Counted from the first letter of the stretch, positions 52,174-56,673 are shown. The stretch is 64,000 bases of DNA from an uncultured Ignavibacteriales bacterium (GCA_963746735.1 CAVVCO010000013.1:51253-115252), one strand, 5' to 3'. Translations and numbers: made by a program. The notes: generated from the sequence alone by a model not told the origin.

Positions 52174-52620
52174 ATGAATACAATAGAACTCTTAGAGCAT
52201 ATCAAACAAGCGGTCAAAAACTTCAAAGATCCAAAAATCATTGAATCTGGAAGGGCATATCATTATACTTCCAATTGGGACTTGATCAAATCAACTGGGA
52301 AATTTCTTGGTGCACCAATAGATGAAAATTTAGATCATACTCAATCGAGTTTAAAATCACCACCTGCCTCAAATGACCCTGGGGTTGTATTTTGCTATGA
52401 AGAATATGAAGAGGCCAAAGAAGAAGGTATGGGATCTCAAATGATAGAAATACAATTTGAATCTGCTATTAAAGCAATGCATGGTCAAGAATCAGATCTT
52501 GGCGATCTGACAAATGCTTTTCTTTCTGACTTAGGTGCTGAAGTTCAGTTGAATCACACTCCTTATACTTTGTTAATTCTTACCACATGTATAAAAAGTT
52601 TCCGAGTTGTAGAACAGTAA
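52174..52620 (+). CDS. Hypothetical 148-aa protein, first gene of the RT operon
   Basis: Intact ORF. Its stop overlaps the RT-A start (TAATG at 52618-52622). No family recognised. Confidence 0.6.
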   Translation: MNTIELLEHIKQAVKNFKDPKIIESGRAYHYTSNWDLIKSTGKFLGAPIDENLDHTQSSLKSPPASNDPGVVFCYEEYEEAKEEGMGSQMIEIQFESAIKAMHGQESDLGDLTNAFLSDLGAEVQLNHTPYTLLILTTCIKSFRVVEQ

Positions 52621-54151
52621 TGAACCTTGTAGTAAAACATATCAGGGAAACTGAGAAGCTTATCAAGGCTATTGATAAAGTCAAAATAGCTAACTGGATA
52701 TTGAAAGAAGGTTATTCCATGAAAAATATGTTTTACCACTTACATTTAGAGTAGAAGGGTTCAAATTGGGATACAAACCAAACGTGAAAGACCTTGAGAA
52801 AATAGGAAGGCAAAAGGTCATATCAATTTCTTATCCAAAATCCATATTGACGTACAGAGAATTTGATATTCAGTACCCTTACTATTATCATGATATCATT
52901 TTTTGGATGATGCAGGATTGGGACGATATTCTAAAACATTTGTTTCATAAAGATAATAGAATCTATTCTTACAGTTTTCCTATACCAGTAAATGCGAGAG
53001 ACAAGAGTAACCTTAGTTCCTTACGTTCTGGTAGAATGATTTATGAATGGATTGCTATGGCAGAAAAAGATTTGGTTGCAGAAGCCAACAAGTACAATCT
53101 CATTGTTCGTTCAGACGTCACAAATTTCTACAACTCAGTCTATACCCATAGTATTGGCTGGGCATTGCATGGTCAAGAAGTTGCATTCAAAGACAAAACC
53201 TATAAACTAACCGGAAATAAGATTGATCGTTTGGTTCAATATGCAAACTATGGCCGAACCAACGGAATTCCTGTTGGTTCCGCATTGAGTGATTTGATTG
53301 CCGAGATCGTTTTAGCAAGCATTGACAAGAATGTTTCAAAACGATTAAAGCACCTTGACTTTTTGGCTACTCGCTTTAAGGATGATTATAGAATTCTCTG
53401 CCATGATAAAAAAGATGCGAAGGAAATTCTGAAAGTACTTTCTGATGAACTTGTTCTTTTTAATCTTCTGATCAATGAATCGAAGACACATATTCTTGAA
53501 TTACCTTCCGGGCTGTACCGACATCATGATCGGGCATATCACCCTCATTCTCTTAAGGATATGGAAAAAATATACTTCAAGACTTTTGAGTTGACGTTAT
53601 TGACGGCACTCGACATCCATAAAGAGTACTCAGGAACAAGTGTTTTAGAAAAGTTTTTTAGCGAATTATACGATGATGCGCATGAACTGAAAATCGTATT
53701 TGCCAGCGAGAGAAATAGCCAGAAAAAACAAATCCTAAAGACGTTCAGTTTGCTAATGCTGCTAAAGCGTGAATCGGAAAAAGTTCTTTGCCATGTCTTT
53801 GCAATTCTTGAATCCATCTACACGACACATAACAGAACACATAAACTGAAAGACCATCTGAAATCATTGATAGAATCAGAGATTGAAAAAGCTACACATA
53901 AGAAATCAATTTTTGAATTGACATGGCTTGTCTTTTTTGCTCGTTATATGCGATTAGGAATCACAGACACTTGGCTTAATAAGACCATAGACATTGACCT
54001 AAGAAAAAATTTGTTTTTAAAATCTATTTGTGTGAACAAACAACAAATCTTCAATGGGATCAAAGTTGATTTATTTAGAAATCCAAAGGACTGCAAGGAT
54101 ATGACATTAGCAAAACGACTGGCTGTATTTGAAAGAAATATAGATGAGTAA
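52620..54151 (+). CDS. Reverse transcriptase A (UG/Abi-like, motif C FKDD), with a 1-nt frameshift near 52713
   Basis: RT motifs ISYPKSILTYREF, VRSDVTNFYNSVYTHSI (A), GIPVGSALSDLIAEIVL (B), RFKDDYRIL (C) and LINESKTHI (D/E), plus a ~200-aa helical C-terminus. The N-terminal 31 codons (ATG 52620, MNLVVKHIRETEKLIKAIDKVKIANWILKEG) join ...YFHEKYVLPLTFRVEGFKLGYKPN if one T is added to the TT run at 52714-52715. The ORF-track call 52766-54151 starts at an internal TTG. Confidence 0.8.
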
Positions 54152-54199
54152 TTAACTCTGTACGGACGAAAAGAATAAAAAGCACAAAGGCACAACAAT

Positions 54200-54308
54200 G
54201 GGTATAGAACAAAGGGCGGAAAGTGGTTTCCGCAAATTTTAGTCTCTTAGCAAACTTAGTCTCGGTGGACAAGTACACAGCATCCGAGATGCCCTATGTT
54301 TCATACCC
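54200..54308 (+). ncRNA. Candidate structured RNA in the RT-A/RT-B spacer
   Basis: The closing helix pairs GGGTATAGAAC (54200-54210) with GTTTCATACCC (54298-54308). It extends with AGG (54213-54215) / CCT (54293-54295). Hairpin GCGGAAA-GTGG-TTTCCGC lies at 54216-54233 and hairpin GCATC-CGA-GATGC at 54280-54292. Two TTAGTCTC direct repeats (54239-54246, 54256-54263) sit in the unpaired centre. Confidence 0.5.
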
Positions 54309-54352
54309 AAGAAAGTTAGAACAAATTTAACGACCATAATACATCGAGATAA

Positions 54353-55945
54353 ATGAGAAACAATTTTAATAAAGCCTTGACTAATATCGTTCGACACGGA
54401 GACACGGACATTTTTCCGTTTCCATTCGAGCGTTACTTGTTTGAACAAAAATTAGAAGAAACGTTAGACATTTTAGAGACCTACCATAGTAATATTGACA
54501 ATGCAATTACTCTATCACCGCCCCTGACATTAGTAGAATTAAGTCAAGTAGGTTACTATGGATTCAGACAGGCTACTTTAATTGAGCCTTTTTGGAATGC
54601 TTATTTTCTTGGCCTTGTAGTATCTATCGCTGAAGACATCGAAAGTAAGCGAATAAATGAAGGAGAAAAAAATGTTTTCTCATATCGCTTTCAATGGAAT
54701 GACGAAACTGGCTCACTGTTTAAAGACACAACTTGGATAGATTATAAAAAACAATGTATAGAATACTCCAGAGACTATAAATATGTTCTGCAAACAGACA
54801 TTTCAAATTTTTATCCAAGAATCAACCACCACAAATTAGAGAATGAATTAAAAAGAATTGACCCAGGCAATACAGTTTATAAAAAAATAATGAAATTGCT
54901 AAGTGTATTTTCAGGAACAATATCTTACGGGCTTCCAGTCGGTGGACCTGCTTCAAGAATTCTAGCTGAACTCGCATTAAATCATACTGATTATCGCCTT
55001 AAATCAAGGGAAGTTGTCTTTTGTAGATATGCGGATGATTATACTATATTTTGTGACAATGAATCAGATGCATATAAAAAACTAATACTGCTTTCAGAAA
55101 AATTATCCAATGACCAACTAGGGTTGCAAAAGGACAAAACAAAAATAATGACATCGGAAGAGTATAGAGAAATACATCTATTCCTTGACCCTCGACCCGA
55201 ATTAGAAAATTCAGCTGACGAACAAAAATTACTTAACATATCAATCCGATTTGACCCCTATTCTGCAACAGCAGTGGAAGATTATGAAAAATTGAAAGAA
55301 GCTGTGAAAGAAATAGATATAATTGGAATTTTATCTCGTGAAGTACATAAAACTAGAATCGACCAAACTGTAACAAAACAAGCTATCAATTCTATTAAAG
55401 TATTAACATCAGAGAATCAAGTTCAAGCAATCAAGATTCTACTTGACCAAAATAATCTTGTGACACTTTCACCTGTATTCAATTCGATTATGCGTTCCGT
55501 AAGAAGTGTTTACGAAGAACTAAATACTGATGGCAAAGATTTAGTTGACAGTTCTTTAATTGATTTGTTCAAGTCTGAAAGTTTCCTGACTAAGATAGAA
55601 ATGAATATCTGCTATATGATTCAAATATTATCGGTAAGACATTCAGCAGTAAAGGAATCGCTATTTATTAAATTATTTGAAATGCCTTTTAACCATTTAA
55701 TTAAAAGACAAATCATAGTTGCTATGTCAAACTGGAATTGCCACTATTGGCTAGTAGATATTAAAAACAACTTCACCACATTGACTAATTGGGAAAAACG
55801 AGCTGTGATTTATGCTTCTTATTTTTTGAGTGATGAAGGCAATCATTGGAGAGACAATAACAAAAAACTTTTCAGTAGAGAAGAATCCCTGATTCGAGAC
55901 TGGTGTTCAATTAGAAAACAAACAAATCAAAACATTCTGGTATGA
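54353..55945 (+). CDS. Reverse transcriptase B (UG/Abi-like, canonical YADD)
   Basis: N-terminal HGDTDIFPFPFE. Motifs LQTDISNFYPRINHHKL (A), GLPVGGPASRILAELAL (B), CRYADDYTIF (C; DD at 55034-55039) and LQKDKTKI (E), plus a ~230-aa helical C-terminus. Confidence 0.85.
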   Translation: MRNNFNKALTNIVRHGDTDIFPFPFERYLFEQKLEETLDILETYHSNIDNAITLSPPLTLVELSQVGYYGFRQATLIEPFWNAYFLGLVVSIAEDIESKRINEGEKNVFSYRFQWNDETGSLFKDTTWIDYKKQCIEYSRDYKYVLQTDISNFYPRINHHKLENELKRIDPGNTVYKKIMKLLSVFSGTISYGLPVGGPASRILAELALNHTDYRLKSREVVFCRYADDYTIFCDNESDAYKKLILLSEKLSNDQLGLQKDKTKIMTSEEYREIHLFLDPRPELENSADEQKLLNISIRFDPYSATAVEDYEKLKEAVKEIDIIGILSREVHKTRIDQTVTKQAINSIKVLTSENQVQAIKILLDQNNLVTLSPVFNSIMRSVRSVYEELNTDGKDLVDSSLIDLFKSESFLTKIEMNICYMIQILSVRHSAVKESLFIKLFEMPFNHLIKRQIIVAMSNWNCHYWLVDIKNNFTTLTNWEKRAVIYASYFLSDEGNHWRDNNKKLFSREESLIRDWCSIRKQTNQNILV

Positions 55946-56673
55946 TAAGCGAAAGAGACATATCAGAAAAATTTAGTGCAATTTGGAAACAACATTTTCC
56001 TTTGCTTACACCTAATTTTATTCGGGTTTTTAATGAGACACAAATTTCAGTAATAAACACAAAGCAAGTAATTGCATTGGAAGAAGTTAGATATGACTTA
56101 ATTTCTGAAGCTGCCTTTAATCTTTCAGAAATAGCCTTTGTTAACAATATAAAGCCATCCGAAGCATTCTCAGTAGACAAAGAACAAAAGAAGATTGTCG
56201 ATATAACCGCAAGGAGCATTTGGAAAACAGGTAATTACTCTGATAGTGATTTGTTTATTTCAGACATTGAAAAGCAGGAGATAATTTCAATCGCGGACAA
56301 CACTTTAGAATTTATTAAAAAATTTGTTGGACAAGAGGTTTTATTTAAGCCGCAGTTAAAGGGATACAGCTTTATACCTAACTTAGTAGCAGATATTTCA
56401 ATCGGTGACACATTATTTGAAGTAAAAACCGTAAACAGAAATTTTAAATCAAGCGACTTAAAACAACTTTTTATCTATATCGCTTTGAGACAAGTGAGCG
56501 AAAAAGAAAACTGGAAATTTGCAGGTTTATATAATCCACGAAAAGGTACATATTGTAAGTTTAATATTAAGAGTTTAGTTTATAATTTGACTGGTGGTAA
56601 GACAACGAATGAAGCATTTGAAAACCTATTAAACGGACTCAATAGAGATGTTGAAATTGATAGTAAATTTTGA
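55942..56673 (+). CDS. PD-(D/E)xK nuclease-fold protein (RecB/Cas4-like motifs, no Cys cluster)
   Basis: LVADISIGDTLFEVKTV supplies D at 56392-56394 and E-V-K at 56419-56427. It is followed by KQLFIYIAL (QxxxY). The start overlaps the RT-B stop (ATGA). Confidence 0.65.
   Translation: MISERDISEKFSAIWKQHFPLLTPNFIRVFNETQISVINTKQVIALEEVRYDLISEAAFNLSEIAFVNNIKPSEAFSVDKEQKKIVDITARSIWKTGNYSDSDLFISDIEKQEIISIADNTLEFIKKFVGQEVLFKPQLKGYSFIPNLVADISIGDTLFEVKTVNRNFKSSDLKQLFIYIALRQVSEKENWKFAGLYNPRKGTYCKFNIKSLVYNLTGGKTTNEAFENLLNGLNRDVEIDSKF

Follow-up and report, generated by a model that had tools for sequence, protein, structure and literature searches.

A DRT type 8 pair and an ORF-1–UG14 cassette as probable independent neighbors in a small defense islet of an uncultured Ignavibacteriales bacterium

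Introduction

About 40% of the reverse transcriptases (RTs) of group UG7 are linked to a gene encoding a PD-(D/E)xK protein ("cluster 17"), and this pair, named defense-associated reverse transcriptase (DRT) type 8, protects E. coli against phage T5, a protection that is lost when the active site of either the RT or the nuclease is mutated (Mestre et al. 2022, PMC9226505). How DRT8 works biochemically is still to be established (PMC13213688). In the former study, group UG14 appears only as a predicted defense gene that is strongly enriched in defense islands, and the text does not name a gene associated with it (PMC9226505); the literature searched contained no experimental test of UG14. Here we analyze a locus in which a UG14 gene is followed by a DRT8 pair, located at positions 52174 to 56673 of a 64,000-nucleotide (nt) stretch of DNA from an uncultured Ignavibacteriales bacterium (GCA_963746735.1, CAVVCO010000013.1:51253-115252); this whole stretch is referred to as the window.

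The relatives of UG14, namely DRT6 (UG12), Abi-P2, DRT4 (UG15) and AbiK, are class 1 UG/Abi RTs with a C-terminal alpha-repeat domain. According to a 2026 overview (PMC13213688), template-independent single-stranded DNA (ssDNA) is made by DRT4, and by inference also by DRT6, and is stabilized by a phage DNA-binding protein into a toxic product. A further system to be considered is DRT3, which comprises a UG3 RT (Drt3a), a UG8 RT (Drt3b) and a non-coding RNA (ncRNA) with a CACACA motif as its hallmark (PMC9226505). An initial annotation of the window had proposed a DRT3-like dual-RT operon, extended by a small leading open reading frame (ORF-1) and by a nuclease.

Results and discussion

Gene content of the locus

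The features of the locus are listed below, where L001, L105 and L098 denote related contigs and RT-A and RT-B the first and the second RT.

52135 to 54209, plus strand: cassette A (ORF-1 and UG14 RT), a homology block common with L105/L001 at 84.8% nt identity (blastn and DNA alignment)
52174 to 52620, plus strand: ORF-1, 148 amino acids (aa), of a small uncharacterized family of about 150 aa
52620 to 52754, plus strand: N-terminal fragment of the UG14 RT (RT-A), with an ATG overlapping the ORF-1 stop (TAATG), 44 codons and then a premature stop at 52752-52754
52714 to 52715, plus strand: frameshift site, a 1-nt deletion relative to L001 (GGGTACTTCC) and L098 (GGCTACTTCC), the window reading GGTTA-TTCC
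52766 to 54151, plus strand: main body of the UG14 RT, 461 aa from the first in-frame start (TTG), matching the RT_UG14 profile and Pfam RVT_1
54152 to 54352, plus strand: spacer of 201 nt, the first 58 nt belonging to cassette A (conserved in L105) and the rest being the DRT8 5' region
54216 to 54233, plus strand: G+C-rich hairpin and then a T-rich tail, just past the end of cassette A
54353 to 55945, plus strand: Drt8 RT (UG7; RT-B), 530 aa, apparently intact (PADLOC Drt8 E = 3e-161; Pfam RVT_1)
55942 to 56673, plus strand: RT-associated PD-(D/E)xK nuclease, 243 aa (PADLOC RTasPDDEXK E = 1.1e-63, profile positions 1-222 of 226)

The coordinates, lengths and strand of ORF-1, RT-B and the nuclease agreed with the initial annotation, as did the TAATG at 52618-52622, the ATGA at 55942-55945, the spacer and the motifs it had named (FKDD, YADD, HGDTDIFPFPFE and the nuclease residues D151...E160-V-K162...Q175...Y179). 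RT-A had been taken for an intact gene coupled to ORF-1; this has to be corrected, as the frame opened by the ATG at 52620 stops after 44 codons and the frameshift had been missed.

The locus very probably consists of two independent anti-phage cassettes that adjoin by chance in a small defense islet. Cassette B (54353-56673) is a complete known DRT type 8, and cassette A is ORF-1 together with an RT of the known UG14 group. The headline claim of a "dual-RT plus nuclease" system is thus of limited weight, and what is new here, mildly, is only the ORF-1 family and the coupling of ORF-1 to UG14.

Profile assignment of the two reverse transcriptases

Residues 2-519 of RT-B aligned to positions 4-490 of the 493-position Drt8 profile of PADLOC, the next-best profile being UG21 at only 7.5e-39. 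The YADD motif was located at 55028-55039 (aa 226) and the HGDTDIFPFPFE motif at 54395-54430. The nuclease, for which Pfam returned no match, was recognized by the RTasPDDEXK profile, and its start overlaps the RT-B stop within the ATGA, in agreement with its earlier description as a PD-(D/E)xK enzyme coupled to RT-B. When aligned to two alphaproteobacterial plasmid DRT8 nucleases, which are 21–22% identical to it, D151, E160, K162, Q175 and Y179 were all invariant. The features that define DRT8 are therefore present, i.e. a UG7-group RT, a cluster 17-type PD-(D/E)xK gene directly downstream, and intact YxDD and D...ExK residues, and both proteins match their profiles at full length in the same gene order and with the genes coupled. 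Judged by these matches, the nuclease is the published partner of UG7 (PMC9226505) and the predicted effector of DRT8, and not an additional component as had been thought. The pair differs from the described examples in its low-GC, probably Bacteroidota background, with only 21–30% identity to the proteobacterial plasmid examples, and in the 143-nt leader preceding RT-B. On infection, the DRT8 RT would make a DNA product, which would activate or direct the nuclease and so lead to cutting of phage and/or host DNA.

RT-A was identified as RT_UG14 by the PADLOC profile (E = 2.8e-177, profile positions 55-492 of 493), followed by AbiP2, Drt6 and Drt4 at about 1e-57 to 1e-52, and Pfam assigned RVT_1 only to both RT-A and RT-B. 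These profiles place RT-A among the class 1 UG/Abi RTs, with DRT6, Abi-P2 and DRT4 as its closest relatives. Its motif C, FKDD (53375-53386), is invariant in the UG14 family. By analogy with DRT6, Abi-P2, DRT4 and AbiK, a UG14 RT would make untemplated, probably protein-primed ssDNA that would be toxic during infection.

Conservation of the two cassettes

Cassette A has its nearest independent relative in L001 and L105, two metagenome contigs that are 99.9% identical mutually. Positions 909-2984 of L105 aligned by blastn to window positions 52135-54209 only, with the homology stopping at both ends. Downstream, homology to the window ends 58 nt past the UG14 stop in both contigs, and the next 312 nt are unrelated, with a minus-strand ORF and nothing resembling RT-B; upstream, Ppl-like genes in L001 contrast with a cyclophilin gene and a tandem array in the window. 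Since the homology is limited to this block, ORF-1 and UG14 appear to move as a two-gene unit, to which DRT8 is a separate neighbor. The region upstream of ORF-1 and UG14 in L001 (4189-7098) encodes two proteins with weak PADLOC Ppl matches that also match AAA/OLD-type ATPases (GajA etc.), and the cassette thus adjoins other defense genes there too.

UG14 loci were surveyed with an 18-sequence alignment in one genome per GTDB species, and 80 loci with 35–68% identity were kept, each with up to 6 kb on either side. ORF-1, a second (UG7-like) RT and the nuclease, searched for with a hidden Markov model (HMM) of the ORF-1 family and with phmmer using RT-B and the nuclease, were found within 6 kb in none of the 80, and when the ORFs directly up- and downstream of UG14 were clustered, no family was common to more than two loci. 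As no partner recurs, UG14 is normally a stand-alone gene, and the window copy is unusual in having a coupled small ORF in front of it, one missing from the 80 other loci.

For the DRT8 pair, a tblastn search of plasmids with RT-B gave nine distant matches, and the two plasmid loci inspected (Rhizobium and Sphingobium) held only the Drt8 RT and RTasPDDEXK among unrelated neighbors, without UG14 or ORF-1; nothing was found when RT-B was searched in viral contigs and phage genomes. On the Sphingobium plasmid (AP027331.1; L104, 6449-9503), a large gene annotated as 'reverse transcriptase like protein' immediately follows the DRT8 pair in convergent orientation, which is another case of RT defense genes clustering without being one system. 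A lack of conserved co-occurrence of the four genes in related genomes had been named among the findings that would refute the dual-RT proposal, and such co-occurrence was absent from the 80 UG14 loci, from the plasmid DRT8 loci and from L105/L001. The locus can be regarded as a cautionary case in which defense genes packed in islets mimic a multi-gene operon, and it also offers modest value as a source of a DRT8 of Bacteroidota type and of a UG14 locus for experiments on the mechanisms of these two DRT groups.

Several observations weigh against the independence of the two cassettes. All four genes occur in the same order in one other contig only, L098; at 99.6% identity to the window it belongs to the same lineage and does not count as independent support for a four-gene unit. 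The spacer has no plus-strand copy of the Bacteroidetes-type -7 motif TAnnTTTG, and DRT8 may for that reason be read through from cassette A, which would place the genes on one transcript. The two RTs may conceivably cooperate in function. The TAnnTTTG motif occurs at chance frequency in the window, with one plus-strand site (52096-52103) upstream of ORF-1, and sigma-70-like promoter sites were at background level. In both independent relatives ORF-1 overlaps the UG14 start (TAATG in the window, ATGA in L001), and in the next ORF-1 cluster (49% identity) a DRT2 RT gene follows a short way downstream. Of the three closest ORF-1 lineages, two thus adjoin defense RTs, more than would be expected if ORF-1 were purely a passenger. 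Lastly, every mechanistic step proposed in this work rests on homology.

The UG14 gene and its frameshift in the window sequence

The UG14 gene is intact in L001 and L098, encoding 510 aa in each, and the L001 protein covers the whole UG14 profile (positions 1-493). Exactly one gap was present in the DNA alignment of the window with the 85%-identical L001, corresponding to a missing base at about 52714, and the alignment with L098 placed the same single 1-nt deletion at about 52714. The N-terminal fragment agrees with the N-terminus of the intact homologues up to Y32, and the main body lacks the first ~49 residues of the family. The UG14 homologues listed are 484–536 aa long, nearly all of them 502–520 aa, and 14 of the N-terminal 48 positions are invariant in the 18 aligned sequences, including Tyr32 directly before the break. 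Where a UG14 gene is expected to be a complete single ORF of ~505–515 aa with this conserved N-terminus, the window gene is frameshifted at codon 32. RT-A is a UG14 member by descent, and the copy is disrupted as written in the window.

A programmed -1 frameshift, with a G-AAA-AAT stretch in the frame overlap as its possible site, was considered and rejected: all homologues are single-frame, and from the deletion site on the downstream frame, FHEKYVLPLTF, resembles FPEQYILPPTF of the homologues.

When the window was compared with L098, seven of the 16 differences fell within 43 nt (52698-52740), comprising the deletion and six substitutions, and at six of these seven positions a C in L098 stands opposite T, A or a gap in the window. 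The two are identical over the ~4 kb from 52867 to 56870, where their overlap ends. The cluster may stem from local recombination, from a consensus over a strain mixture or from a systematic sequencing error.

The UG14 copy in the window is thus either inactive or the product of an assembly indel error. A true pseudogene, which would leave DRT8 (and perhaps ORF-1) as the only working part in this genome, is quite conceivable though slightly short of probable. The changes clustered in 43 nt alter conserved residues next to 4 kb of identity with L098, and the truncation removes a highly conserved N-terminal region, both of which fit a pseudogene; an error in the assembly is favored by a second frame break ~9 kb away, in A-rich sequence of an FG-GAP/type IX secretion system (T9SS) gene, and by the intact gene in L098, a near-identical contig assembled independently from a public sequencing run.

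The ORF-1 family

ORF-1 had been reported to lack a recognized family, and this holds: no match was obtained in Pfam, PADLOC, NCBIfam, PHROGs or PDB sequences for the protein family. A k-mer-seeded search yielded three clusters, a metagenome scan with an 11-sequence alignment yielded five loci, and an exhaustive HMM search of 1.84 billion representatives yielded 62 representatives at 50% clustering, so that the family is real but small. H30-Y31 is invariant, and G26, T32, G46, Q57, A65, G70, F73, Y75, A98 and A101 are near-invariant. In contig L100 (2-451 and 542-991), a 149-aa gene without a PADLOC match lies directly upstream of the family member P0004 (149 aa), of which it may be a tandem duplicate.

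Structure prediction and a Foldseek comparison, which the initial annotation had suggested for ORF-1, gave a confident model, whereas the fold matches were weak. An earlier model from only three sequences was unusable (predicted local distance difference test, pLDDT, 56), and the AlphaFold2 model from 39 sequences reached a pLDDT of 93.6 and a predicted template modeling score (pTM) of 0.86. Its 13 best PDB matches in Foldseek were all of the ADP-ribosyltransferase (ART) fold, including Tpt1/KptA, diphtheria toxin and homologues, Scabin and a guanine-specific ART, with pertussis toxin S1 further down the list; the scores were weak (best E = 0.056, probability 0.84, TM 0.3–0.45), and no ART family match was obtained at the sequence level. 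The predicted fold of ORF-1 thus weakly resembles that of ADP-ribosyltransferases. A strand ending in H-Y-T and followed by a helix, and later a G-V-V-F-A-Y strand, presumably recall the H-G-T and G-x-Y-F-A elements of ARTs. Compared with the ART catalytic triad (H-Y-E or R-S-E type), H and Y are conserved and no Glu is, nor was a conserved catalytic Glu or Arg set evident in the family alignment; ORF-1 further differs from ARTs in that its ~150 aa amount to a minimal domain only, without a conserved catalytic Glu or Arg tetrad.

The neighborhoods of ORF-1 were examined in 12 lineages, of which only two adjoin an RT. One has UG14 as neighbor (the window, L098 and L001/L105), and the other has a DRT2 RT (L003-L005, Drt2 E = 2e-138) 390 nt downstream. 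In L003 (807-4557; also in L004 and L005), the ORF-1 homologue (49% identity) is followed by the 390-nt gap, the DRT2 (UG2) RT and a PDC-S26 candidate defense gene, the gap being the usual place of the DRT2 ncRNA. Elsewhere the neighbors were a ThsB-like TIR protein (L096), PDC-S63 (L095), a UvrD/GajB/RTasHel-like helicase beside an integrase (L090), a tetratricopeptide repeat protein (L088), phage RepO (L102), a TrbI conjugation region (L092), a T9SS protein (L099) and plain chromosomal genes (L091), with nothing informative in L101 and L087. Given this heterogeneity, ORF-1 is often near defense or mobile genes and is not RT-specific. Its coupling to UG14 appears to be a lineage-specific acquisition, and ORF-1 would most likely be a defense-island passenger captured into the UG14 operon and not a general RT component. 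The family is small, widespread but rare and often found beside defense genes, and its predicted fold hints at NAD+-dependent chemistry.

It is unlikely, in our judgment, that ORF-1 is instead a functional partner of defense RTs, an ART-like effector, modifier or sensor that, for example, ADP-ribosylates the DNA product of the RT or a target nucleic acid, in which case ORF-1 with UG14 and ORF-1 with DRT2 would be new two-gene variants. The overlap of the ORF-1 stop with the UG14 start in two lineages at 85% nt identity, where the pair is inherited as one block, argues for such a partnership, as do the 49%-identical ORF-1 upstream of DRT2, the confident model with its uniformly ART-fold matches, and the invariant H-Y and conserved GVVFAY-type strand of the family. 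These points are set against the weakness of the Foldseek matches, the lack of an evident conserved catalytic Glu or Arg set, the RT neighbor in only 2/12 lineages, and the 80 other UG14 loci, none of which has ORF-1 or any conserved upstream gene. Somewhat less likely still is the specific proposal that ORF-1 represents a new minimal ART-like family recruited as a coupled partner by defense RTs (UG14 and DRT2), maybe modifying the RT DNA product or the target nucleic acid; if true, ORF-1 and UG14 would constitute an undescribed two-gene DRT variant.

The spacer and comparison with DRT3 and other RT classes

The spacer between the RT genes had been described as folding into nested stems, and it does fold somewhat better than shuffled sequences (-43.5 kcal/mol, z = -2.56), with 2 of 200 shuffles folding as well. 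No Rfam family was matched, even at E <= 1, and the spacer as a known RNA was dropped for lack of such a match. The only other copy, in L098, is identical to that of the window. The hairpin at 54216-54233 with its T-rich tail looks like a terminator, and the simplest reading of the spacer is that of a junction between the 3' tail of cassette A, this terminator-like hairpin and the 5' leader of cassette B, and none of its features identifies it as an ncRNA of the DRT3 type. Positions 54188-54208, within the conserved 3' tail of cassette A, are 81% complementary over 21 nt to 53139-53159 within the UG14 coding region, which is probably due to chance.

The locus shares with DRT3 two adjacent same-strand RTs with a non-coding stretch nearby, and UG8, UG14 and UG7 are all class 1 RTs. 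It differs in having no UG3-type (class 2) RT and in that the RT pairing is not conserved. The two RTs scored 47.9 and 58.1 bits against NCBIfam Drt3a (cut-off 200) and 122.2 and 22.1 bits against Drt3b (cut-off 350), the PADLOC Drt3a matches were about 1e-14 to 1e-19 as compared to 1e-161 to 1e-177 for the best profiles, and no plus-strand CACACA was found between 52 and 57 kb. Membership in DRT3 was rejected on the profile cut-offs and the missing motif, and the DRT3-like label is replaced by UG14 for RT-A and Drt8/UG7 for RT-B.

Retrons, group II introns and diversity-generating retroelements (DGRs) were likewise rejected, on NCBIfam scores, Rfam and a repeat search. The NCBIfam equivalogs for Drt3a, Drt3b, Drt2, Drt4, Drt5, group II intron RT and retron RT all stayed far below their curated cut-offs, with 48 and 83 bits for group II (cut-off 300) and 35 and 60 bits for retron RTs (cut-off 235). 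No intron or retron RNA was matched in Rfam, and neither repeats resembling a template/variable repeat (TR/VR) pair nor long direct repeats besides the upstream tandem array were found. The earlier placement of both RTs among the UG/Abi-type defense RTs therefore stands.

A single four-gene dual-RT system related to DRT3, in which both RTs and a spacer ncRNA would build a DNA product and ORF-1 and the nuclease would be additions, is very improbable: the co-directional, tightly packed genes, the slightly better than shuffled folding and the recurrence of the order in L098 speak for it, and against it stand the best profiles (UG14 and UG7, with both RTs under the Drt3a/Drt3b cut-offs), the lack of a CACACA and of an Rfam match, the absence of a second RT from all 80 UG14 loci and of DRT8 after the closest independent UG14 cassette, the occurrence of DRT8 alone as RT and nuclease on plasmids and in the literature (PMC9226505), and the terminator-like hairpin between the two RTs.

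Surroundings of the locus

The genes upstream of the two cassettes are of housekeeping type (acetyl-CoA synthetase, a LytTR two-component pair, a DAO-family oxidoreductase and cyclophilin), and those downstream encode a polysaccharide deacetylase, a HEPN/nucleotidyltransferase pair, an FG-GAP/T9SS protein and a Mutator/IS256-type transposase. Neither tRNA genes nor direct repeats on the flanks were found that would mark an integration site, and the surroundings are a small defense islet, not a large island. The tandem array, the toxin-antitoxin cassettes (here a HEPN/nucleotidyltransferase pair) and the IS256 element mentioned in the initial annotation were located:

51356 to 51575: imperfect tandem array with a 21-nt unit, consensus AGGAATCATAATGTAACTGGT, between the cyclophilin gene and cassette A
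58199 to 58591 and 58567 to 58884: HEPN and nucleotidyltransferase genes in overlapping frames
62475 to 63707, minus strand: intact Mutator-family (IS256-type) transposase (Pfam Transposase_mut E = 1.5e-116)

The HEPN/nucleotidyltransferase pair (58199-58884) has an arrangement typical of a HEPN/MNT toxin-antitoxin module, and the nucleotidyltransferase also matches the PADLOC candidate PDC-S09. The second frame break lies in A-rich sequence at 61740-61800 (~61760) and separates an 873-aa FG-GAP protein (59192-61813) from its C-terminal T9SS sorting domain (62011-62415), which is read in another frame; this suggests assembly indel errors or a second pseudogene. The tandem array comprises about 9.5 copies with 72% matches and higher-order periods of 41 and 62 nt and, having no spacers, is not CRISPR-like; one further copy of its 15-nt core is located at 51638-51652.

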